Positions 1-22,930 of a DNA stretch of 23,506 bases are shown piece by piece. Within the stretch, counting starts at the first letter, position 1. Every line of letters starts with the position of its first letter. This DNA is from a virus (lineage: Duplodnaviria; Heunggongvirae; Uroviricota; Caudoviricetes): positions 1-23,506 of the IMG/VR virus record IMGVR_UViG_648276653_000011; one strand, 5' to 3'. The position numbers and the translations under genes are program-made. The notes under the pieces are model-generated. The model was given only the letters and a program-made list of their open reading frames with translations, ran no database searches and was not told the origin of the DNA.

Positions 1-1966
1 GACGGAGCAGGAAGCTCACGCCCTTCACCACCTTCGGTGTGTCCCATCGCGCCAGCACCTGATATTCCCCGCTGTCTGCGGTGACTTCGGCGGTCAGATG
101 CTGCACTGCTGGCGGCGTGACACCATTCACCGTGCCGCTCTGGTCGCCGTCAAAGTGCGCCCCGTTATCCACGATGGCCTCTTTTTCCGGCACATGCTGC
201 ACGGCAGTGATGGCATACGTGCCGTCGTCGTTCTCACGGATACTCACGCAGCGGAACAGGCGCTGGCGCAGCGTCGGCAGCTTCAGCCCCCACACGCTGT
301 ATCCGGCAACGCCGTCAGGAACACGGCTCACTTTCACCTTCACGCCGTCGGTGACGGACTGAACCTCCACGCTGACCGGATTGCCACTTCCGTCAACCAG
401 GCTTATCAGCGTGGTACCGGAGGATGGCAGCGTGATTTCACGGTCGAGCGTCAGCGTCCGGGTCTGGCTGTTCACCGCCAGCACACGCCCGCCGGTGCTG
501 ATCCCCGCATAGTCATCATCACAGATTTCAATGACATCGCCCGGTACATGGCGAAGCCCTTCTGCGCCCACGCTGAAGTCCACGGTCTGCGTCTCCAGCA
601 GCTCCGTTTTAATCAGCCACAGCCCGGCGCGGTGTGCCTGCCCCCGGCTGGTACAGCCAAAGGCATCCATCTTCGTGACGTTACGACCGTAACGGACAAT
701 GGCCTGCGTATCCTCCACAAGCTCTGTCGCCGTCTCCCAGCCGTTATTCGGGTCAATCCAGTTCACCTCAACGGCATTATGACGGTCCTTCAGGGCGCTG
801 AAGCTGTAGCGGAACGGCGCGCCATCATCCGGCATCACCACATTACTGCGGTTATAGGTCCACACCTTATCCGATGGCCGGTCCTGCACGAACGTCAGCG
901 TCTGCCCGTTCCATACCGGCATACAGCGCATCGCCGAGCAGAAATCACTGAGCACATCCCACGCCTTGCGCTGCGTGGTCAGCCAGGCATTACAGGTGAT
1001 ACGCGGTTCCGTGCCACCAAAGCCATCCGGCACCGACTGGTCGCAATTCTGGCCGATGACATACAGCGCCCATTTATCCACATCCGCCGCACCAAGACGT
1101 TTCCCCATGCCGTAGCGCGGATGGGTCAGCATATCCCACAGACACCAGGCCATGTTATTGCTGTATGCCGGTTTTAACGTTCCGTCCCAGATACCGCTGT
1201 ATTGCCGCGTCTGCGGGTTATAGTTCGACGGCACCTGCAGAATGCGCCCGCGAAGATGATAATTACGGCTCACCTGCTGGCTGCCGAACTGCTCCGAGTC
1301 CACCTGCACGCCGACCAGTGCCGTGTTCGGGTAGCACTGTTTCACATCGATGATTTCGGTGTATGACGACCAGAGCGTTTTGTTCTGCAGCTGGTCTGTG
1401 GTGCTGTCCGGCGTCATCCTGCGCATCCGTATATTGAACGGGCGCGGCGGCAGGTTACCCACCACCACCGAGGCCAGATACTGCGAGGTGGTTTTGCCCT
1501 TAATGGTGATGTCTTTTTCCGTCACCCAGCCACCATTACGCTGTATCTGAACCAGCAGACGGACTTCCGACGGATTCCTGTCACCCTTTGAGGTGGTTTC
1601 CACCAGTGCCTGTACACCGAAGGTAAAGCGCAGACGGTCGATGTTTGCCGACGTAATGGTGCGGGTGATCGGCGTGTCATATTTCACTTCCGTACCCAGC
1701 ACCGTCTCGGAGCCGGAGGATTCAAATCCCTCCGGCGGTGACTGCTCCTGCTCACCTGCCCGGAACACCACCGTGACGCCGGATATATTGGTATTCCCCT
1801 CACTGTCCAGCACCGGCGTACTGTTCAGCAGCACGCTTTTTAATCCATCCACCGGACCTTCAACCGGCCCTTCGCTGATGGCATCAATCACACTCAGCAG
1901 CTGCGTGGATTTCAGGTTGTCCTTCGCTTCGCGCGGGGTATGCCCCTTACTGCTGCCTTTACCCAT
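1..1966 (-). CDS. J: Host specificity / central tail fibre protein J, N-terminal ~655 codons; 3' end lies outside the window
   Basis: Minus-strand frame from the ATG at 1966 translates as MGKGSSKGHTPREAKDNLKSTQLLSVIDAISEGP..., matching my recollection of the lambda J N-terminus; frame appeared open to the window edge on manual translation; GGAGC Shine-Dalgarno just upstream; follows I as in lambda. Not in the ORF track because no stop falls inside the window. Confidence 0.85.
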   Translation of the reverse strand, partial: MGKGSSKGHTPREAKDNLKSTQLLSVIDAISEGPVEGPVDGLKSVLLNSTPVLDSEGNTNISGVTVVFRAGEQEQSPPEGFESSGSETVLGTEVKYDTPITRTITSANIDRLRFTFGVQALVETTSKGDRNPSEVRLLVQIQRNGGWVTEKDITIKGKTTSQYLASVVVGNLPPRPFNIRMRRMTPDSTTDQLQNKTLWSSYTEIIDVKQCYPNTALVGVQVDSEQFGSQQVSRNYHLRGRILQVPSNYNPQTRQYSGIWDGTLKPAYSNNMAWCLWDMLTHPRYGMGKRLGAADVDKWALYVIGQNCDQSVPDGFGGTEPRITCNAWLTTQRKAWDVLSDFCSAMRCMPVWNGQTLTFVQDRPSDKVWTYNRSNVVMPDDGAPFRYSFSALKDRHNAVEVNWIDPNNGWETATELVEDTQAIVRYGRNVTKMDAFGCTSRGQAHRAGLWLIKTELLETQTVDFSVGAEGLRHVPGDVIEICDDDYAGISTGGRVLAVNSQTRTLTLDREITLPSSGTTLISLVDGSGNPVSVEVQSVTDGVKVKVSRVPDGVAGYSVWGLKLPTLRQRLFRCVSIRENDDGTYAITAVQHVPEKEAIVDNGAHFDGDQSGTVNGVTPPAVQHLTAEVTADSGEYQVLARWDTPKVVKGVSFLLR

Positions 1967-1988
1967 TCGTCATGCTCCATAAACGATA

Positions 1989-3319: not shown

Positions 3320-4018
3320 TTACTGCGAAAGTTTGTTAATGGAAAGGAAGCCGCCAAAGTTGCCGACGTTATTGCGAAACTTACAGCCACTCAGGCATTT
3401 GCTGCATTTATCCTTCGTGATATCGGACGTCGGCTGGTCATATTCATCCGCGACAGCCGGACCGTGATAACCGCACTCATCACCGCGATAGGTCCAGGTG
3501 CAGGTATTAGCCAGCATGATACGTCCCGGAAAAACGGCACCATCCGTTTCCGTCGGTGTGGAGAGCACAAAGGAGGCACTGACCGCGCTCAGTTCGCTGC
3601 ACTGCTCGATGCGCCAGCGGCTGATCACCTCCTGCTCCGGATCGGCTTCACTGTTTCCGTTGACGAAGTTCACCGCATCCAGAAAACGGGCGTAAACCTT
3701 ACGCCTGACCACCGTTCCGCCGACCAGACTCTGCAGGTCTTCCGCCATACCGGTGACCATGCCGTGCAGGTTAGATACCTTAAGTGTGGGACGTGCGCTG
3801 CTGCCCTTACCGTTCATCTCAAAGCCGCTCCCCTGAATGGGATACTCCTGATACTGCCTCCCCTGCCAGGTAACCGGCTCACCTTTTTCGTTCTGCTCAT
3901 TACAGAAAAAATAACGTTCACCACCGACCTCTGTCAGATCGATTTCCCAGAGCACGACCAGCGCGGATTGCTCCGATTTAGTGCACTCATTGAGTGTTTC
4001 CTGCTGTATATCCTGCAT
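3320..4018 (-). CDS. L: Minor tail protein L
   Basis: 232-aa ORF MQDIQQETLNECTKSEQSALVVLWEIDLTEVGGERYFFCNEQNEKGEPVTWQGRQYQ... lambda gpL-like; ATG at 4018 overlaps the M stop (TGATG). Confidence 0.9.
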   Translation of the reverse strand: MQDIQQETLNECTKSEQSALVVLWEIDLTEVGGERYFFCNEQNEKGEPVTWQGRQYQEYPIQGSGFEMNGKGSSARPTLKVSNLHGMVTGMAEDLQSLVGGTVVRRKVYARFLDAVNFVNGNSEADPEQEVISRWRIEQCSELSAVSASFVLSTPTETDGAVFPGRIMLANTCTWTYRGDECGYHGPAVADEYDQPTSDITKDKCSKCLSGCKFRNNVGNFGGFLSINKLSQ

Positions 4019-4359
4019 CAGTGAGTGACCTCTTCAAAGGTACAGTTAAAATCGGTATACATGGCATTATCCGAAATACTCCACTCCCTGCAGACAACCC
4101 GGACGGTCCTGTTATATTTTGGCGGACGCCACAAAAAAGCACGCATCCCGGCATGACGGGATAAAAAACTGTCCAGCGCGGCACGGGAATATTCATCCGT
4201 GACACGAAATACCGGTTTAAACGTTTTCAGATCTGCATTCAGACCACCAGCCCGTCGCTGTTCATATCCGTCACCAAACTTTACCGTAATAACTGATGGC
4301 TTTCGTGTCGTCTCCATCCCCTCACGGGGGATCCAGTTAAAAACTTCAGGCTCAGGCAC
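4018..4359 (-). CDS. M: Minor tail protein M
   Basis: ...VITVKFGDGYEQRRAGGLNADLKTF... parallels recalled lambda gpM ...VRKVRFGDGYSQRAPAGLNANLKTY...; preferred start is GTG at 4359 with GGAGGA 7 nt upstream; alternative starts ATG 4374 or TTG 4404. Confidence 0.8.
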   Translation of the reverse strand: MPEPEVFNWIPREGMETTRKPSVITVKFGDGYEQRRAGGLNADLKTFKPVFRVTDEYSRAALDSFLSRHAGMRAFLWRPPKYNRTVRVVCREWSISDNAMYTDFNCTFEEVTH

Positions 4360-7300
4360 TGTACAATCCTCCATCCCGACGCGATGACTGCATAATTGAC
4401 ACAACCCTGCTGTCGATCAGATCCACCAGTCCCCTGGCTGAGCGCGCATCTATCTCGCCATTGCTCCCTTGATTCTGAATGCTGATGTGATACACGGGAG
4501 AATAAACCAACCCCCCCGCCACTATTCACATTGCCAATGGCTCTGACCCCAAGAGAGCCGTCCGCTGCCCGTGTCAGTGGCATGATAGCTTCAGGCCCGG
4601 CCTCGCCCATCAGCCCGGCGCCTTTCGCAAAAGCAAAATACGTCGGTGTATCCACAATAGTGTTACTGTAAGCACTCAGATTTGCCGATGTGTAAACACC
4701 ACCTTTTGCGTTTGCCACCGCCCCCGAAATCCATCCGCCGACCGTACCAAGCCACCATCCGGCACCGGAGAGTGACTTCAGTCCGTTAACAATGGCCGCA
4801 TTCATCAGAATTTTTGAAACTTCCTGGAGAATTGAACTCCCCCAGTTTCTCCAGTCCACAACATTTCCGGCCAGTGCATCGGAAATATTTGATACCAGCC
4901 CGTCCATAGTGGAAACGACAGCATCTGCCGCCTGCGAAGCATAATCGGTGGCACTGTCTGCCCAGTTGGTCAGCCCCTCCTGGAGTCCTGCATTCCAGTT
5001 ATTACGTAAAGCATCGGCCTTTGCATAATAATCCTGCTGATCGCTGAGACGCTCTTCCAGATATTTTTTATTCAGTTCTTTCTCCTGTTTCCACAGGGCT
5101 TCTTCAATTTCTCCGGCCTGATACTGTCTCAGCAGCTCGTTATTTTTCTGCTCAAACTCATGCCGGATACTCCACATTTCCTGGAGTCGTTCGCGCATCC
5201 GTGAGCCTTCACCATATCCCAGTAACTGCGCGTCGTTAGACGCCCGGGTACTGGCATTACTGTCCGCCAGGCTGCTTTCATACGCAGCAAGCTGCTCACG
5301 AATCTTTTTCTGGTCGATGAGTGCTGCATTCTGCAAAAGCGTTTTTTTCTGCGCTTCTGACAGGGTTGATAATTCGCCCTGACTGACCTGATATTTCATC
5401 TTAGCCAGTTCAGTATTCTGCCCTGCCAGTGCTATCTGTTCTTTTTGCTGTTTAATCAGCCGTTTATAAATATCTTCTGTTTTTTCCGCTTCGGTCTTTT
5501 TATGCGCTTTGGGTTTATTTGCCTGGTTATTTCGCCAGGCATCCAGTGAGTTATTGATATAATTCTGTCTGGCTGTCTGATACGCCTCTCCCACAAAGCC
5601 AAGATCATCCGCAGCATAGCCCAGTCGAGCACGCTCACGCGCTTCCCCCTTAAGGCGGGACAGAGCCAGTTCGCGCTTGCTGTTATTCAGTGCGGTCTGC
5701 TGTTTATCATCCAGGGTTGTCTGTGGTAGCCGTAACGGTACATTCACCAGCCCCTGTCGCTGCTGAAGTAATTCATTACCAAGCCCAAGAAGGCGATTAA
5801 ACTCGGTATGCTGCCCATTCATGATCAACAGGGACTGATACGCTTTGTTTTGTTCCGCCGCCTGTTGACGGATCAACGCAACCCGCCGCTCCTCCAGCCC
5901 GGCAAGCACATCCTGAATGGATTGCGCTTTGCCCTGCATTTGTGTGAGACGGGACTGTTCAACTGCCAGTTGATTTGTTGCTTCTGCAAGCCCTTCTGTG
6001 ACTGTTTTTACCGACGTCATGTGGTTAATCATAAAACCGTTATCGGTTGTCCAGCCCGGGTTTGCCAGCACATACTGATAGCCAGCAATTTTTTCCTGTA
6101 AGGATTTAATCTTACTTTTCTGCTCGTCAATTAACCTGTTTTGCTCATCAAGTGCCTGCCGCGTCTTTTCCTCATTATCTGACGCTTCAGGAAGCGACAT
6201 TGCCGACGTTTTCTGGCGAATTTCGTCGATTGTTGCGGCATACTGGCGTGCAGATTCTCTGGCCTGCTCCTGATTCTGATACATCGTGTACCAGGCCGTC
6301 GCCCCCAGCATGACGAGTCCCGGCACACCACCAACCAGCCCTAGCGCACCACTTAACAGACGACTCCCCACTGACGTGACAGTATTCAGCGTTGTCTGCG
6401 CCGCTGTTCTGGCCGCAATATTACGGGTAAGTGACGCCTGAGCAGCTGTCAGCTTCGCTTCTGCTGCGGCCTGCCTTTCGGTACCGCGAGCAGCAACAAC
6501 CGCCTGTTGCGCACGATAAACCGCCGCACGCGCCCTGGCGGTTGCTATCTGTGTCCCCCGAAGTTGCGCTTCAGCAAGAGCCACTTCGTTTCTGGCTGCA
6601 GTAATTAATCCGGCAGTTGCAGATCCAGCAGACGACGCCATATTGCCAAAATATCGGGCTACCCCGACGGCAACCAGTGCGCCAGCTGCAGCAGCCACGG
6701 TATCAATATTGTCTGCAACACCATTCAGCACACCGGAGAGTGTCTTTGTCACTCCGCTTGCCTCGTTCGCACCACCAACCCAGGCCATAAAGGCGTTTTC
6801 AACTTTGGTTGCAGAGGATGAAACAGTATCAGGCATTGCTGCATATTCATCACGCAACGCCCCAAGCTGACTAATCAGTGCAGGAACAACCTTATCGGCG
6901 GTCAGTTTTCCGTTATCCGCCATGGCCTTCAGATCCTTACGGGCAACCCCCATTCCCGCAGCCAGCGCACGAATAACACGATCGCCGTTCTCATTCACCG
7001 AGTTAAACTCTTCACCGCGCAGCACTCCCTGCGCCAGTGCCTGACTGAACTGCATGATCACCGAACTGGCTTCTGCTGTACTGGCACCGGATAATTTCAG
7101 GCCCGTGGAGATCGCCTCGGTGACTTTCAGTACCTCCTCAGAACTGTAACCATACTCCCGCATGGAAGCTGCAGAACGGGCAAAAAGGCTGGCGTTATCA
7201 GAAAACGCCGTCCCCGTTCTCTGGCTGATCGCCATTAATTCACGCTGTGATGCCTGAAAATCATCACTGGACTGTGAGGCCTGCTTCAGACGGGCATTTA

Positions 7301-7586
7301 CTGAATTCCACTCATCGGCGAGAGAAATAAGATGACCGGTAGCAAAAGCCCCGGCAAATGCCCCCGCCATATTCAGTGCCGAAGATTTAGCTGTATTTAT
7401 CTGATCCGTCACTTCTGCCAGTGCACGCCGCATTTCACGGGAGGCAGCAGCAGACTGTTGGCCTCCGTTCTGCATGGTGCGGTAGTAATCCTGCCCCATA
7501 CGCGAAGCCCGGGAGATCTCTGACTGGAATGACCGGGAGTTTGCCGAGATTTTAATAATCAGTTCACGTAATGTCGCCACACTCAT
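4281..7586 (-). CDS. H: Tail tape measure protein H; C-terminal ~70 codons as read are probably out of the authentic frame (see findings)
   Basis: 1101-aa ORF MSVATLRELIIKISANSRSFQSEI...; long Ala/Gln-rich coiled-coil-like body; position between G-T and M. After the G7 tract (plus-strand C7 at 4511..4517) the translation becomes Arg/Trp/Cys-rich and overlaps M by ~78 nt. Confidence 0.8.
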   Translation of the reverse strand: MSVATLRELIIKISANSRSFQSEISRASRMGQDYYRTMQNGGQQSAAASREMRRALAEVTDQINTAKSSALNMAGAFAGAFATGHLISLADEWNSVNARLKQASQSSDDFQASQRELMAISQRTGTAFSDNASLFARSAASMREYGYSSEEVLKVTEAISTGLKLSGASTAEASSVIMQFSQALAQGVLRGEEFNSVNENGDRVIRALAAGMGVARKDLKAMADNGKLTADKVVPALISQLGALRDEYAAMPDTVSSSATKVENAFMAWVGGANEASGVTKTLSGVLNGVADNIDTVAAAAGALVAVGVARYFGNMASSAGSATAGLITAARNEVALAEAQLRGTQIATARARAAVYRAQQAVVAARGTERQAAAEAKLTAAQASLTRNIAARTAAQTTLNTVTSVGSRLLSGALGLVGGVPGLVMLGATAWYTMYQNQEQARESARQYAATIDEIRQKTSAMSLPEASDNEEKTRQALDEQNRLIDEQKSKIKSLQEKIAGYQYVLANPGWTTDNGFMINHMTSVKTVTEGLAEATNQLAVEQSRLTQMQGKAQSIQDVLAGLEERRVALIRQQAAEQNKAYQSLLIMNGQHTEFNRLLGLGNELLQQRQGLVNVPLRLPQTTLDDKQQTALNNSKRELALSRLKGEARERARLGYAADDLGFVGEAYQTARQNYINNSLDAWRNNQANKPKAHKKTEAEKTEDIYKRLIKQQKEQIALAGQNTELAKMKYQVSQGELSTLSEAQKKTLLQNAALIDQKKIREQLAAYESSLADSNASTRASNDAQLLGYGEGSRMRERLQEMWSIRHEFEQKNNELLRQYQAGEIEEALWKQEKELNKKYLEERLSDQQDYYAKADALRNNWNAGLQEGLTNWADSATDYASQAADAVVSTMDGLVSNISDALAGNVVDWRNWGSSILQEVSKILMNAAIVNGLKSLSGAGWWLGTVGGWISGAVANAKGGVYTSANLSAYSNTIVDTPTYFAFAKGAGLMGEAGPEAIMPLTRAADGSLGVRAIGNVNSGGGVGLFSRVSHQHSESREQWRDRCALSQGTGGSDRQQGCVNYAVIASGWRIVQCLSLKFLTGSPVRGWRRHESHQLLR

Positions 7587-7596
7587 TCTCCGGACG

Positions 7597-7617
7597 AAAA
7601 AAACCGCCGAAGCGGTT
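7597..7617 (-). terminator. Terminator-like hairpin (AACCGC-TTCG-GCGGTT) plus T-run between the G-T stop and H start
   Basis: Plus strand shows A7 followed by CCGCCGAAGCGG; on the minus strand this is a stem-loop followed by a T-tract ~10 nt upstream of the H start codon. Confidence 0.35.
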
Positions 7618-7625
7618 ATGTTGAC

Positions 7626-7955
7626 TCACTGAGACACTATTAAAAGCGCGTTTTCCAGTCCGGCAAATGGATCTGAAGCGCCTTCTGTCTGCTCCTTCTC
7701 CCACTGAAGAAGCGCATCATTCAGTGACACTTTGACCCCCTGCGCACCGTAAACAGCTGAAACAATCTGGGCAGCCCGGAAATCAGCCCGTTCGTCCCCC
7801 AGCGGGCTGAACCTGTCAAATTCTGCCCACATCATGATTTCTGATGCGGACATTTCCCGGCGTAACTCTGACAATGTGCGCCCCATCCTGAGCGCCAGCA
7901 TCATCAGAAAACGCATCCCCGGAAGCGCTACTTTTTTTAACCTCGCCGGCATCAC
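7626..7955 (-). CDS. T: T-frame extension of the tail assembly chaperone (G-T fusion product)
   Basis: 109-codon open frame overlapping the 3' end of G in the +1 frame, ending 40 nt before H; T frame opens just upstream of the A7 tract; arrangement matches the conserved G/GT chaperone pair upstream of tape-measure genes. Confidence 0.65.
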   Translation of the reverse strand: MMPARLKKVALPGMRFLMMLALRMGRTLSELRREMSASEIMMWAEFDRFSPLGDERADFRAAQIVSAVYGAQGVKVSLNDALLQWEKEQTEGASDPFAGLENALLIVSQ

Positions 7956-8298
7956 TGATCAGTTCCAGAGACTGCCGAAGAAGCCGCGCATGCACCGGGC
8001 CATACACGGCAATCACCTGTTCACGATCATCCTCTGAAAATACGGGTTGCAGTCCGGTATCACACAGAACATCAATGAACAGTTCAACATCTGCCTCCAG
8101 ATTTCGGCGGGCGCGCTCCGCAACGGATAACGGTGTCTCATCATCTTTTGCTTTAACGATCTCCTGCCAGCGCAACCAGGCTTCTGCAGAAGGTTCCCGT
8201 AACACAACCGTTGCTCCCTCCCATTCAGGCACATCAACGGTTTTATGGCGAAACCCCGACATCGTTGCCAGTGCCAGATTACGGATATTTTTAGTCAT
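7816..8298 (-). CDS. G: Tail assembly chaperone G
   Basis: ORF between the major tail gene and the tape measure; ATG at 8298 has GAGGA 8 nt upstream (alternative coupled ATG at 8313 overlapping the V stop as TAATG); acidic C-terminus. Confidence 0.7.
   Translation of the reverse strand: MTKNIRNLALATMSGFRHKTVDVPEWEGATVVLREPSAEAWLRWQEIVKAKDDETPLSVAERARRNLEADVELFIDVLCDTGLQPVFSEDDREQVIAVYGPVHARLLRQSLELISDAGEVKKSSASGDAFSDDAGAQDGAHIVRVTPGNVRIRNHDVGRI
7932..7938 (-). other. Putative programmed frameshift slippery tract (A7 on the coding strand) linking G to the T frame
   Basis: G frame reads GAG GTT AAA AAA AGT AGC; T frame reads AGG TTA AAA AAA GTA GCG; the -1 frame hits TAG immediately, so only a +1 (or -2) shift joins G to T. 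Confidence 0.5.
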
Positions 8299-8312
8299 CA
8301 CATCCATCCTCA

Positions 8313-9017
8313 TTAACTGACGGTTACAGTGCAGGAAGTGGAGGTCACTTTGTTAACCGGGCTCGCTGAATCAGAAATCTCGCAGGTATACGCACCGGCA
8401 TCACCGGATGCTGCTGATGCCTTACTGAACGTTGCCGCCGTCTGTCCGGAAACAGGAGAACCACCTTTTTTCCAGGCATAAGAATAAGGCGGCACACCAC
8501 CCACAGCCTCAACCGCCATTTCAAGTTTCGCTCTGGAAGCAACCCGCAGCGTGCTTTTTAAATCGACCTTCACTTTCAGCGGCTCTGTCGTCAGCACAGG
8601 CTTACCTTTCAGGCGCAGAGAAAACGTTGCAGCCACAACACCATTGGTTCCTGCAGACCAGGTATGCTGACGCACCTCTGCCATAAAGGTAAATCCGTTG
8701 CCTGACGGAAAAATAACTTTAAAGCCATACGTGGTGTCATTGTCATAGGCACTGCGCAACGCGTTCTGGGCAGCATTCAGATAAAAGTTGCCTGACATGG
8801 AAATCTCTGAAGCAGCCCCAAGACCGTTAATATTTTCCTGCTCAACAGAACACAGCGTGGTGACATCAATATCCTGCTTTTGTCCTGCGGTAAACTGCAC
8901 CTCTTTGATTGTACAGCTCAGGCCAAGATAGCTGGCAGAATCCAGGGTTTCTGCTGTTACCGGTGCAGACGAAATCATAATTTTCGTCAGTTGCGAACGC
9001 TCAAAATTAGAGGACAT
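8313..9017 (-). CDS. V: Major tail protein with C-terminal Ig-like domain
   Basis: 234-aa ORF MSSNFERSQLTKIMISSAPVTAETLDSASYLGLSCTIKEVQF...; C-terminal ...PPYSYAWKKGGSPVSGQTAATFSKASAASGDAGAYTCEISDSAS... resembles a Big_2-type domain as on lambda gpV; AGGAGA Shine-Dalgarno upstream. Confidence 0.85.
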   Translation of the reverse strand: MSSNFERSQLTKIMISSAPVTAETLDSASYLGLSCTIKEVQFTAGQKQDIDVTTLCSVEQENINGLGAASEISMSGNFYLNAAQNALRSAYDNDTTYGFKVIFPSGNGFTFMAEVRQHTWSAGTNGVVAATFSLRLKGKPVLTTEPLKVKVDLKSTLRVASRAKLEMAVEAVGGVPPYSYAWKKGGSPVSGQTAATFSKASAASGDAGAYTCEISDSASPVNKVTSTSCTVTVS

Positions 9018-9034: not shown

Positions 9035-9058
9035 AAAAAAAACCCGCCAGCGGCGGGT
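9035..9058 (-). terminator. Strong intrinsic-terminator-like hairpin (ACCCGCC-GCT-GGCGGGT plus T8) immediately upstream of the major tail gene
   Basis: Plus strand reads aaaaaaaa-cccgccagcggcgggt; on the minus strand a 7-bp GC stem, 3-nt loop, then an 8-T run, followed by the AGGAGA RBS and V start. Confidence 0.55.
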
Positions 9059-16680: not shown

Positions 16681-17220
16681 ATGGATATTAAAGATAAAAT
16701 CAATACCATTTTGTTATGTGACATTGCCATCCACCTAGGTATCGAAACTGATATTGATCCACAGCTTGTTAAATATGCTGTGTCATCTGGTAATGATTGG
16801 GTTATCAAGGCCGAATATTCACATTTGGATGTTGACGAACCAAGTAAAGAAGATCGTGATTTTGTTACTGCTGTCTTGAATATGTATCGCGGACTTTCCA
16901 ATGCTTTCAGGAAACTTAGTGATGACGAGCAAAAAGAATTAGTCCGTGACCATCATCTAAAAATACATGATGGGGCAATTCAGCTCCCAGGTTTCGACGG
17001 TAATAATGAATGCGATTACTTCAGTATCATTGAGGCATATCAGAAAATTGATCGCTTCCCCGAACAGAAACAGCCCATTGCCAATACTCATTCACGTACA
17101 GAACATCTCTATAACGCAATGCTTGATGAGTTTAAGAAAATTGACGCTGTAAATCGAAGCTGGGATTTATCGAAGGAAGAACTGGCATCCATTCTTTCCA
17201 CAGCTCCACGCAGTTTCTAA
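16681..17220 (+). CDS. Plus-strand moron gene, 179 aa; tentatively YfbU/UPF0304-like; function unknown
   Basis: ORF MDIKDKINTILLCDIAIHLGIETDIDPQLVKYAVSSGNDWVIKAEYSHLDVDEPSKEDRDF...; visibly AT-rich versus flanking late genes; AGAGGG RBS 8 nt upstream; strand opposite to the late operon; hairpin immediately downstream. Family call is from memory only. Confidence 0.6.
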   Translation: MDIKDKINTILLCDIAIHLGIETDIDPQLVKYAVSSGNDWVIKAEYSHLDVDEPSKEDRDFVTAVLNMYRGLSNAFRKLSDDEQKELVRDHHLKIHDGAIQLPGFDGNNECDYFSIIEAYQKIDRFPEQKQPIANTHSRTEHLYNAMLDEFKKIDAVNRSWDLSKEELASILSTAPRSF

Positions 17221-19173: not shown

Positions 19174-19392
19174 ATCCTCACCCCGATGTACACGGATGGT
19201 GCAATATGTTTGAAAAGATCGGAGTCTACGGGGTAGTTTTGACAGCACACGTTGTTCTCAACGGCGCTAAAAAAACATACACATTAAAAATGTGGGTAAT
19301 TATTTTGAAAGAAAATCATATATAAAATAATAATACGAGAAATGTTTTCATATTTAGTGTACTGTATACGGCCATTTATACAGGAAAAGCCT

Positions 19393-19563
19393 ATGTCAGA
19401 ACGTAAAGACTCAAAATCACGCCGTAATTATCTCGTTAAATGCTCCTGCCCAAACTGCACCCAAGAGTCAGAACACAGTTTTTCAAGAGTACAAAAAGGT
19501 GCCCTTTTGATCTGCCCTCATTGCAACAAAATATTCCAGACAAATCTTAAAGCTGTAGCCTGA
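19393..19563 (+). CDS. Small zinc-ribbon protein (56 aa from ATG; hypothetical)
   Basis: MSERKDSKSRRNYLVKCSCPNCTQESEHSFSRVQKGALLICPHCNKIFQTNLKAVA with CxxC...CxxC pairs; AGGAAAAG RBS; AT-rich; the track ORF starts further upstream at 19342. Confidence 0.4.
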   Translation: MSERKDSKSRRNYLVKCSCPNCTQESEHSFSRVQKGALLICPHCNKIFQTNLKAVA

Positions 19564-19622
19564 TTGATTTTATTAGTAACAAGTATTTTTTATATTTTAA
19601 TAATATATTTAAAGCAGATAAT

Positions 19623-19650
19623 AAAAAACCCGCCTGAGCGGGTTTGAGAT
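19623..19650 (-). terminator. Intrinsic terminator (AAACCCGC-TCAG-GCGGGTTT plus T-run), possibly bidirectional
   Basis: Perfect 8-bp GC-rich inverted repeat; on the minus strand followed by TTTTTTATTAT; ~280 nt downstream of cspB and ~60 nt downstream of the plus-strand zinc-ribbon ORF. Confidence 0.5.
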
Positions 19651-19925
19651 TGTGGTGCTTTTTGTGGGAGTCATCCACTTACGCACTTTGTTTTGCCATG
19701 CCAGCAGTTAGCTTCTGCTGTAAAACTATTCATGCAGCAAACCTGCACTTCACCACAATGGTTAGCATACTTTTCCTGATTAAGGTTTTGCCAAATATGC
19801 TGGCCATTGTTTCATGTATTGGACCTCCTTATTTTTATTAAAGAGATCCAATATTCACTACTCTGTCCGTATCTCTACTCAGGCATCAGCCTTCTTCGTT
19901 ATCGTATACAGACGAGCGATGAATT

Positions 19926-20141
19926 TTAATCAGTAATGATGACATTTGCTGCTGCAGGACCTTTAGCACCACTCTCTATAGAGAAGGTAACCTTTTGACC
20001 TTCAAATAAGGTTCGATAATTATCATTCTGAATCGCAGAAAAATGCACAAACACATCTTTACTACCATCAACAGGAGAAATAAAGCCGAAACCTTTATCA
20101 GCGTTAAACCATTTTACTAAACCAGTCATTTTATTTGACAT
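19926..20141 (-). CDS. cspB: Cold shock protein CspB-like (CspA family)
   Basis: 71-aa [74 protein letters not shown]; canonical RNP motifs KGFGFI and VFVHF; TAAGGAAT RBS. Confidence 0.9.
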
Positions 20142-20441
20142 TCTACATTCCTTAACTTGAGCCTTTCGGCATAAATGGTTTGCATAACAGAAACGACTTC
20201 GTACTTAATTGGAGAGACTCAAAGAAGGAATAAGTGAATAACACCTGAAATGAGAACTGCTTTAGTAAACTACTTCGTATATCGTCTGTTCTTCAAACCG
20301 ACGCAATCATTAACGCATAGTTGAACATATGAAGCAATGTTTATTTTAGACATCCAGCCATCTTCAACCCCATCAAAAAACTATAGCTTTCTTCAGGAAC
20401 GTGTGTATAGTGCGCCAAGTTATCAGTATTAAGGAATTTTT

Positions 20442-20654
20442 TTGTCCCGTAAAATGACAGGAATTGTCAAAACCTTTGACGGCAAAAGCGGCAAGGGTCT
20501 TATCACCCCATCCGATGGTCGTATCGATGTCCAGCTTCATGTTTCAGCGCTCAATCTCCGCGATGCAGAAGAAATTACCACCGGATTACGCGTGGAATTT
20601 TGCCGGATAAATGGTCTGCGTGGCCCTTCAGCTGCCAATGTTTACCTTTCATGA
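20442..20654 (+). CDS. cspF: Cold shock-like protein CspF/CspH family
   Basis: 70-aa [73 protein letters not shown]; apparent TTG start with AAGGAA 5 nt upstream; divergent from cspB. Confidence 0.85.
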
Positions 20655-20708
20655 GCTATATTAAAGCTTTAATTTCAGGCCCCATCGGATCACACATGGA
20701 GAGTTTTT

Positions 20709-20798
20709 ATGAATAACCCCGTCTGTCTTGATGACTGGATGATTGGCTTTAAAAGCTTATGCTGTACTTTGGCCGTAATAGCTCTGCTAATAATATAA
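20709..20798 (+). CDS. Candidate 29-aa hydrophobic peptide ORF downstream of cspF (speculative)
   Basis: GGAGAG-TTTTT-ATG context; manual translation [29 protein letters not shown] with hydrophobic C-terminal half; below the track's size cut-off. Confidence 0.2.
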
Positions 20799-20946
20799 TA
20801 AGCAGACTCATTGTGTTTAGGGACATTGTACTGGAAGAAAACATTTTAAACATCAGGCAAATAACCAAGTCACCAGCTAAATAATAAGTTAACAGACATG
20901 AGTCCCGGGATGAGATTCAACATTACCATTGCCCCATTTAAAGCAC

Positions 20947-20980
20947 AAAACCCGCTCATCAGCGGGTTTTCTACTTTTTC
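20947..20980 (-). terminator. Candidate tR' late terminator (10-bp stem AAAACCCGCT/AGCGGGTTTT), potentially bidirectional
   Basis: Inverted repeat read directly, followed by TTTTGTGCTTT on the minus strand and CTACTTTTTC on the plus strand; ~60 nt downstream of the putative pR' start. Confidence 0.5.
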
Positions 20981-21009
20981 TTAACGTCGGGTATACAAAG
21001 CCCATCGTT

Positions 21010-21050
21010 GAAAAAATTTTATCCATATTTTTTGAAAAATGCAAACATCA
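21010..21050 (-). promoter_or_regulatory. Candidate late promoter pR' (-35 TTGCAT, 17-bp spacer, -10 TAAAAT) just downstream of Q; expected Q-utilisation region
   Basis: Minus strand reads TTGCAT-ttttcaaaaaatatgga-TAAAAT (plus coordinates 21039..21044 and 21016..21021); position after Q matches the lambdoid pR'/qut arrangement. Confidence 0.45.
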
Positions 21051-21075
21051 TGTCGCCATCTTCAGCAAAAATCAT

Positions 21076-21828
21076 TTATCTCGTCACCTTCCTCAATTGC
21101 GCTTCCGCGTATGCTTCTTCCTGCCAGCACTTTGTTACCAGTTTACCAATGACGTCCGCATACCCCTTATACCACTGATAATCGGTCAGGTCTGGTACCA
21201 GCTTCTGGACATGACGTCGTGCCAGCGTGGTCGGTAAACGACTAAACCGGTTTCCATTACAACGCCCACAAATCTTATATACCGGTACGCCATGAAACCG
21301 GGTTCTTTTTTCATCCAGAACAATCCCTTTACCCTTACACCCTCTGCACGCTGTGCTGACTTCGCCCTTACCATGGCAATGCTGACATAGTTCCTTCACC
21401 CATTCTTCCTTGATTACAGATTCCCCGCGTCTGTAGTGTTTCACCACTTCGCGCAATACATTATAAAATCCCGTACCTGAACAATGCTCACAGCGAGCCT
21501 TACTTGCCGCAGACCTGGAGTAATCAGCAAAGGCAAAACTCACGAGGTAAGGAATAATCTGTAACCGGATTTCTTCACTCAATTTGTTCAATGTCGGGTT
21601 ATCCAGTGCCATCGCGTAATTTAGCAGGCCTTCAATCGCAAACTGAGGGTCCTGAACACCAACTTTTGCCAGAAATAAGGCCAACCCAAGTGGTGCTTTC
21701 GACTGCACCATCCCCTGCGCTGCCATTACATCCGTAATTGTTAAACAACCGGTGCCTGTCGCTGGAGCGTCATCGCTCAATTTTGGAGATTTTGGGGAGT
21801 AATATTTTGGTAAGGCTTCAAGGTTCAT
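21076..21828 (-). CDS. Late-gene antitermination protein Q
   Basis: ATG at 21828 with GGAG 7 nt upstream gives MNLEALPKYYSPKSPKLSDDAPATGTGCLTITDVMAAQGMVQSKAPLG...; Cys-rich C-terminal cluster (CEHCSGTG...CQHCHGKG...CRGCKGKG...CGRCNG) suggesting Zn binding; position before the late promoter and lysis genes. Confidence 0.8.
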   Translation of the reverse strand: MNLEALPKYYSPKSPKLSDDAPATGTGCLTITDVMAAQGMVQSKAPLGLALFLAKVGVQDPQFAIEGLLNYAMALDNPTLNKLSEEIRLQIIPYLVSFAFADYSRSAASKARCEHCSGTGFYNVLREVVKHYRRGESVIKEEWVKELCQHCHGKGEVSTACRGCKGKGIVLDEKRTRFHGVPVYKICGRCNGNRFSRLPTTLARRHVQKLVPDLTDYQWYKGYADVIGKLVTKCWQEEAYAEAQLRKVTR

Positions 21829-21841
21829 GCTCGTTCTCCAC

Positions 21842-22930
21842 TTACGCCAGTACGCCAATTGCCAGCGCGCGATCGATAAAACGAAATATCAGCTCCAGTT
21901 GGGAGCCATACTTCTCTTCAAATGCCACTGTATCCGTATGCAGCTCGTTGTGATGCTTTCTGCACAAAGGCAACACAAAGAGATCATGTGCTTTTGTTCC
22001 CATTCCGCCCTGCCCGTGACCAATCAGATGATGCGGATCGTCGGCTGGCATACCGCAGCAAGCACACGGCTGTGTCTTAACCCAACGTGTGTATTTCTCC
22101 TTAACCCAGCGGCGACGTTTAGGCAGCTTCATGAAAGATTCCGGAGACTCTGGATCAACGGTGATGCTTACCACCGTCTTTTCCTGTGGTGGTTTTTGTT
22201 GCTGGTAGGCGTAAGGCAACGGTGCAAGATTTTTTGTGCGTTGTTTCAATATGCTGGTGGCGGTCTGCTCTCCCGGTACGATGTCGCTTTCGCGGTACAC
22301 CGAGCAGATTTTTTCCGCTGGTAATCCCAGCGAACGACGCGATACAGCCTCAGGTAGTGCATCCACCACCTGATTGCAGACCGCCCACCAGGATAATTCA
22401 GCCAAAGATAATTCCCGCTCCTGCGTACCGCTTATTGCGTGACGGATGACGTCAATCACCCATGCTGTCAGATTTTGTTGAGCAAGCAGATCCAGTGATT
22501 CCGATGTCTGGTCACGCAGTTGGTTGTCGCAGTGCCAACACAACACCATTGCGCCGGTACCATAACGGTGAATGACTGTTTCAGAGTGATGGTAATCGCC
22601 ATTAGGCCACTGGCAGGATGTAACATGACGTAATAGCCAGTCAGACAATGCGCCAACGCCGCCAGCAGCACGAATCACCCGTTCGTTACTAAAAAACGGC
22701 AGCAATGTTTTGTCTTCCACCAGCGGCTGGCGAACGGCAGGAACGACTCCGGATGGCAGATTACGCATGCTTTTTGGTTCCGGTTCCACCAGCACTCGAG
22801 GATTATGAAATATCTGTATGGATTCACGGCCCGGCTTAAGGACCACCAGCCCAAGCTCAGGCACCAGAACAGGTCTAAGTAATACCCGCACGTTACCTCC
22901 AGATCCGTTGCTGGAAAGTGCGGGACGCAC
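21842..22930 (-). CDS. DUF968-like protein (YdfU-like; start uncertain)
   Basis: C-terminal ...CACCGMPADDPHHLIGHGQGGMGTKAHDLFVLPLCRKHHNELH... recalled as the DUF968 signature; sits immediately upstream of Q as in Qin-type prophages; annotated start is GTG at 22930, overlapping the upstream 92-aa ORF; internal ATG at ~22768 is an alternative. Confidence 0.6.
   Translation of the reverse strand: MRPALSSNGSGGNVRVLLRPVLVPELGLVVLKPGRESIQIFHNPRVLVEPEPKSMRNLPSGVVPAVRQPLVEDKTLLPFFSNERVIRAAGGVGALSDWLLRHVTSCQWPNGDYHHSETVIHRYGTGAMVLCWHCDNQLRDQTSESLDLLAQQNLTAWVIDVIRHAISGTQERELSLAELSWWAVCNQVVDALPEAVSRRSLGLPAEKICSVYRESDIVPGEQTATSILKQRTKNLAPLPYAYQQQKPPQEKTVVSITVDPESPESFMKLPKRRRWVKEKYTRWVKTQPCACCGMPADDPHHLIGHGQGGMGTKAHDLFVLPLCRKHHNELHTDTVAFEEKYGSQLELIFRFIDRALAIGVLA

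Follow-up and report, generated by a model that had tools for sequence, protein, structure and literature searches.

A one-base frameshift in the tape-measure gene of an Escherichia coli MS 124-1 prophage contig is most likely an artefact of the deposited draft

Does the tape-measure gene of this prophage really leave its frame shortly before its expected end, or does the shift exist only in the deposited sequence? The window analysed here, a stretch of 23,506 nucleotides, is the whole of contig ADWT01000070.1 from the draft assembly GCA_000179135.1 of E. coli MS 124-1, which carries HMPREF locus tags. The initial annotation offered three explanations for the change of frame in its tape-measure gene, H: a homopolymer sequencing error, a genuine frameshift mutation in the prophage, or slippage-dependent expression. 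We find that the deposited sequence does contain the H frameshift, which is in itself most likely artefactual. Among the three explanations, sequencing error is favoured, a genuine frameshift is rated low, and slippage-dependent expression is unsupported.

As read, H sits between the chaperone genes G and T and the distal tail gene M, and two features describe it:

4281..7586, minus strand: tape-measure gene H as read, 1101 aa from the ATG at 7586, with PF20155, PF06120 and PF09718
4281..4508, minus strand: aberrant tail of H, 75 codons plus TAA, in the wrong frame

The protein scores above the curated cut-offs for PF06120 (310 bits), PF20155 (197 bits) and PF09718 (52 bits), and H is a tape measure of HK97 type whose C-terminal domain is lambda-type. 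Its first description as a lambda-H-like gene is apt for that C-terminal domain, but the rest is HK97-type and the gene is not simply lambda H. Residue 1026 is the last in the conserved frame; in translation it is followed by a 75-aa tail (GLFSRVSHQHSESREQWRDRCALSQ...HQLLR, with its TAA at 4283..4281) in which Arg, Ser and Gly are abundant and which has three Trp and three Cys. The minus strand at the junction reads ...AAT AGT GGC GGG GGG GTT GGT TTA TTC TCC CGT.... The sequence bears out both the reported G7 (coding strand, 4517..4511; C7 on the plus strand) and the as-read tail that stops at 4281 and overlaps M, the overlap amounting to 79 nt.

Under accession EFK66030.1 the H of E. coli MS 124-1 is deposited as 'phage tail tape measure protein, lambda family'; it agrees with the as-read H at 100% identity, has 1072 aa, begins at Met30 of the as-read H and includes the aberrant tail. 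Exact look-up of the 1101-aa as-read protein gave no match because gene callers chose other start codons, and a homology query with H residues 1-1026 returned P0013, which is EFK66030.1, at 100% identity; its contig, like the window, is 23,506 nt long. We also looked for an extension common to homologous tape-measure proteins, which would count against the initial annotation. Compared with 5.8 billion protein clusters, the 75-aa tail matched two fragment proteins only, one encoded on a metagenome contig in ENA and the other on a Logan contig (raw-read or metagenome assemblies), and no family was found. Both fragment proteins enter or leave the tail frame at positions other than those in the H of the window, and their matches to the tail are noise.

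The displaced frame gives a different end to H, at the start of the next gene:

4352..4507, minus strand: true C-terminus of H by homology to lambda gpH, 51 codons plus TGA, in the displaced frame
4018..4359, minus strand: gene M, distal tail protein, PF05939, with its GTG start at 4359..4357

This frame reads ...VYSPVYHISIQNQGSNGEIDARSARGLVDLIDSRVVSIMQSSRRDGGLYSA and stops at the TGA at 4354..4352, inside GTG-CCT-GA, which produces an 8-nt H/M overlap, GTGCCTGA; the Shine-Dalgarno sequence of M, GGAGGA, lies at 4372..4367, and the GTG begins seven bases later. The same 8-nt overlap is the arrangement annotated in relatives, which bears out the canonical H/M junction that had been proposed for the other frame. 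Only in the restored frame does the H stop overlap the M start; the as-read stop lies 79 nt inside M. Deleting any one base at the junction puts H back in frame, and the restored translation first proposed is correct overall, apart from its first residue, given as L where relatives have V. The H of the real prophage would most likely read ...NSGGGVVYSPVYHISIQ...DGGLYSA, with 1075-1077 aa according to the start chosen and with its TGA at the M start.

Alignment of the C-terminus to lambda gpH, a comparison already suggested by the initial annotation, identifies the restored end as the true homologue. The restored C-terminal region matches residues 510-849 of the 853 residues of gpH (8iyk_H) with E = 4e-19, and the last 37 residues of the restored H correspond to gpH 813-849 in a high-confidence alignment. 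In lambda, a three-helix coiled coil of gpH residues 818-842/849 rests on the gpI tripod inside the lumen of the tail tip (PMC10721106); of the C-terminal fragment gpHC, it is these residues that are resolved (PMC12617516). The restored H covers the gpH 818-849 segment, to which the as-read tail shows no homology, and the as-read H is without the whole gpI-docking segment.

Two further features define the site at which the frames part:

4511..4517, minus strand: G7 run (C7 on the plus strand), of normal length in in-frame relatives
4507..4508, minus strand: GG in the window versus a single G in all relatives (TTGG versus TTG), from alignments and the survey of loci

A 551-nt query region found matches in 891 complete genomes of E. 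coli and in 10 records of phages, with a best span of 550 bases. When aligned, E. coli 4/4 and phage vB_EcoS-689R5 have G7 too; the sole gap is TTG-TTT versus TTGGTTT in the window, and in both relatives H stops at the M start. Our survey of 38 loci, comprising 24 viral and 12 metagenome loci from a variable-gap pattern scan and the 2 relatives, gave 27 cases of GGC-G7-TTG-TTTAT and 11 of the equal-length G6-TTTG-TTTAT, with all 38 in frame; GGC-G7-TTGG-TTTAT is found in the window alone. The cause first proposed, a homopolymer one base too long, does not hold, as in-frame relatives with identical flanks also have G7. Since G7 occurs in in-frame relatives and TTGG only in the window, the extra base is the G at 4508/4507, and the lesion is a single extra G two bases past a G7 run that is itself normal. 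An 81-mer of the window had no match at 99% identity or more in the 765 E. coli complete genomes carrying the region, and the window allele had no exact match in scans of viral or metagenome contigs; pattern scans of genome_contigs, exact and with variable gaps, returned neither the window allele nor the wild-type allele. In none of the data sets searched did G7-TTGG occur outside the window.

These surveys bear directly on the suggestion that H is slippage-dependent or phase-variable, with the G tract serving as a +1 slip site for ribosomes, as a transcriptional slip site or as a reversible ON/OFF switch in the DNA. Judged from the codons G GGG GGG, +1 re-pairing of tRNA-Gly might in principle be possible and would lead to an LVYSPVY... 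product, and G-tract length variants do recur in databases. Yet the in-frame arrangement is near-universal (38/38 loci; no G8 in 806 of 808 complete genomes), and the two-frame arrangement is not conserved, the window allele occurring in 0 of 765 genomes and four identical prophages, described below, being in frame. Moreover, the out-of-frame product has no homologues beyond the two fragment proteins, shifted H alleles are annotated as pseudogenes, and the extra base of the window lies off the slippery tract, at TTG-G-TTT. We consider this explanation extremely improbable. A related proposal also strikes us as very improbable: that the G7 tract near the 3' end of this widespread gene is a recurrent indel hot spot, perhaps a contingency locus at which G8 turns tails off and G7 turns them on, that leaky +1 slippage may rescue some full-length H, and that MS 124-1 is truly OFF.

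The closest E. coli complete genomes are 96-98% identical to the window and are therefore unable to separate error from mutation. Near-identical assemblies were retrieved by exact look-up of the rare sequence of the major tail protein V, and four more assemblies of the same prophage carry exactly this protein:

E. coli MS 85-1, ADWQ01000054.1: 14,786 columns, 0 mismatches to the window
Logan SRR9067256: 13,824 columns, 0 mismatches to the window
GCA_025052295.1: 8,003 columns, 0 mismatches to the window
Logan ERR8651325: 5,615 columns, 0 mismatches to the window

All four differ from the window by the same four one-base gaps only:

4508: extra C on the plus strand of the window (G on the coding strand), absent in the four assemblies; H coding sequence
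7603 (run 7597..7603): A7 in the window, A8 in the four assemblies; T-H intergenic
7938 (run 7932..7938, minus strand): T7 on the plus strand of the window (coding A7), T8/A8 in the four assemblies; end of G, at the slip site
9042 (run 9035..9042): A8 in the window, A7 in the four assemblies; intergenic, upstream of the major tail gene V

In each of the four assemblies H is intact, with 1075 aa, identical to the H of the window minus one G and with the junction G7-TTG-TTT; this comparison with close relatives of the prophage, which had been recommended from the outset, favours sequencing error. The compared region has 10 runs of at least seven identical bases, and four of these hold or adjoin (within 3 nt) all four discrepancies. 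About 0.9% of positions qualify as lying near such runs, and the probability of four random hits there is about 6e-9. Because two of the four discrepancies are in intergenic DNA, the pattern tracks sequence context and not selection.

From this pattern we infer, with a probability of roughly 0.86, that the H frameshift came into the deposited draft through an error of sequencing or assembly associated with homopolymers. One spurious G would have been called two bases from the G7 run in the H of ADWT01000070.1, and three A/T runs of 7-8 bases would likewise have been miscalled in length. Four homopolymer indels, two of them non-coding, with 0 substitutions in 14.8 kb amount to a run-length miscalling signature and not to one of divergence. 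Human-microbiome reference drafts of 2010 were largely 454-sequenced. On the plus strand the lesion reads C[C]AA-C7, an extra C ahead of C7 with two bases between them. In the carry-forward class of pyrosequencing error, the inserted base is the one repeated in a homopolymer at a distance of at most 2 bases (Huse et al. 2007, PMC2323236), and the H insertion fits this class.

Context alone has no discriminating power, since true slippage mutations likewise arise at homopolymers. A mismatch-repair-deficient mutator history was considered as the main explanation and rejected: no transition stands beside the four indels, and the H insertion is outside the run.

The remaining explanation is a genuine +1 frameshift in the MS 124-1 prophage, possibly a change from G7 to G8 whose extra G was misplaced by the assembler. 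The last 51 residues of H would then be lost, ribosomes would read 79 nt into M, and the prophage would be tail-defective; the segment lost is structurally important in lambda. Comparable indels are known from other strains. Two of the 808 complete genomes, those of E. coli E10 (NZ_CP104533.1) and MS20657 (NZ_CP082077.1), carry the G8 allele, which PGAP labels 'frameshifted' in both; the H of MS20657 contains a further indel. A deletion of one T beside the run (G7-T-G-TTT) is found in CP024257.1 and independently in ERR1937590. This allele yields the 1042-aa protein P0003, and the prophage that hosts it is visibly decayed: IS66 has inserted into it and its J gene is in fragments. An interpretation of the lesion in P0003 and P0009 as loss of the same G was rejected, the DNA showing a missing T instead. 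Real and apparent indels thus cluster at the G7 site of H.

The Logan protein P0128 is identical to the H of the window except that its extra G falls within the run and makes it G8, with a junction of GGGGC versus GGGVG (G8-TTG versus G7-TTGG). Three other Logan proteins, P0125-P0127, have G8 in a slightly different H. The P0128 contig (13,766 nt) is absent from the contigs that carry the exact V protein; this argues, without being proof, that P0128 is not from an MS 124-1 assembly confined to the contig of the window. Should the data behind P0128 come from MS 124-1 and from a different sequencing platform, they would speak for a real +1.

Several properties of the window weigh against a genuine mutation. 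Replication slippage would lengthen the run, and the extra base is outside it. The window is also without other decay, having no IS element and no truncated genes. There are 0 substitutions relative to the four assemblies, yet three more homopolymer-length differences in the contig, two of them non-coding. Substitutions normally exceed indels several-fold. Two independent lethal hits, in the slip site of G and in H, together with two neutral changes, all at homopolymers and with 0 substitutions, are not typical of mutation accumulation. We therefore regard a genuine frameshift as unlikely.

Run-length miscalling, the reading that we prefer, extends to the chaperone genes, where the indel at 7938 produces another apparent frameshift of this sort. 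At the end of G the four assemblies read GTT AAA AAA AAG TAG, with A_AAA_AAG as a -1 slip site into T. The G of the window, with A7, runs on to 7816 and leaves T out of register; from the same start, that of the gene caller, G has 165 aa in the window versus 128 aa in MS 85-1. The G/G-T slip site is broken as read.

Taken as a whole, the prophage appears to have a complete, ordinary HK97-like head and lambda-like tail module. Open reading frames on the plus strand at 81..1982 were rejected as genes, being shadow ORFs on the strand opposite J, a gene that continues past the end of the window. The presumed error in H has entered the protein databases, where EFK66030.1, with its spurious tail, represents a 90%-identity cluster, that of P0013, which includes Logan proteins with the same wrong-frame tail. 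Intactness scoring of this contig, or mining it for frameshift signals, would be misled twice, by H and by the G/G-T site. Were the H frameshift real, the part of H that docks at the tail tip would be gone and tail assembly probably abolished, and H would still be an ordinary prophage pseudogene.

Compared with known systems, the closest parallels are the tape measures of lambda (gpH, PDB 8IYK chain H) and of HK97 type, which share their domain content and the gene order G-T-H-M-L-K-I-J with the window. The H of the window resembles lambda gpH in its restored C-terminus, including the terminal helix that sits on the gpI tripod, and in the overlap of its stop with the M start; it differs in being about 220 aa longer, with a middle part of HK97 type, and, as deposited, in having its last 51 residues swapped for 75 unrelated ones. 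The neighbouring genes G and T have in all relatives the classic A_AAA_AAG of the programmed -1 frameshift of the G/G-T chaperone; this site lies 3.4 kb upstream of the H lesion and is unrelated to it, and in the window it would be miscalled as A7 for A8.

The pseudogenes of E10, MS20657 and CP024257.1 belong to the same family and, like the window, have an indel of a single base that lies no more than a few bases from this G7; E10 and MS20657, the +1 cases, also share its out-of-frame tail. They differ from the window in having G8 or a T deletion and not G7-TTGG, and in CP024257.1 the lesion, which a second read set confirms, is accompanied by the IS66 insertion and a split J, signs of decay that are absent from the window. 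As in pyrosequencing errors (PMC2323236), the window combines an insertion near a homopolymer with +/-1 miscalls of A/T runs of 7-8 bases and has no substitutions. Unlike in a clear carry-forward, the inserted base lengthens a single C to CC on the plus strand, and a simple over-call is equally possible.

The tape-measure gene, H, is not the only gene in this contig with an apparent frameshift; there is a second in the neighboring tail assembly chaperone gene:

7816..8313, minus strand: tail assembly chaperone gene G, with an A run at 7932..7938

In all near-identical relatives the 3' end of G reads GTT AAA AAA AAG TAG, within which A_AAA_AAG forms the -1 slip site into the second chaperone gene, T. 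In the window the run at 7932..7938 is A7, so that G stays open to 7816 and T lies in the +1/-2 frame relative to G. Counted from the gene-caller start in both cases, the G product is 165 aa in the window versus 128 aa in MS 85-1. Among 873 complete E. coli genomes, 13 likewise have A7 at this run, and two further NCBI assemblies encode an exact match to the 165-aa product. In strain KE51, G is called an incomplete pseudogene by PGAP.

Length differences also separate the window from all four of the otherwise identical assemblies at two intergenic runs:

7597..7603: intergenic A run, A7 in the window versus A8 in 4/4 otherwise identical assemblies
9035..9042: intergenic A run, A8 in the window versus A7 in 4/4 otherwise identical assemblies

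The second of these runs is also naturally variable, because looser relatives carry either A7 or A6.

At the G run of H, G8 is found in two complete genomes, E. coli E10 (L045 4525..4560) and E. coli MS20657 (L044). Both copies of H are annotated as "frameshifted", and that of MS20657 has an additional one-base deletion 1.7 kb upstream of its G8 run. Several raw-read assemblies from Logan (proteins P0125-P0128, P0124 and P0002) show differing indels at the same run, either G8 or GGGC junctions, and one Logan variant of H returns to frame 25 codons downstream. In CP024257.1 (L052 9055..9095), a single T is lost immediately 3' of the G7 run, giving a 1042-aa H; this one-T deletion is confirmed by two data sets, the other being ERR1937590 (L053). 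The prophage shared by CP024257.1 and ERR1937590 has an IS66-family insertion in its capsid/connector gene interval and a tail-tip gene, J, broken up into three ORFs, and is therefore truly a decaying copy.

In the window itself J extends past the left contig end, which explains its absence from the ORF listing. Long plus-strand ORFs cover this region and were rejected as genes, being antisense shadows of J:

81..1982, plus strand: long ORFs antisense to J, e.g. 98..1177 (359 aa)

Elsewhere, positions 19250..21900 (antiterminator-side genes to holin) do not align with the relative L039, where the corresponding stretch holds four tRNA genes; no tRNA genes occur in the entire window. One further gene sits on the opposite strand, with the lysis genes on one side of it and the HNH/terminase genes on the other:

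16681..17220, plus strand: YfbU-family gene

This gene is found in relatives too, and is moron-like.
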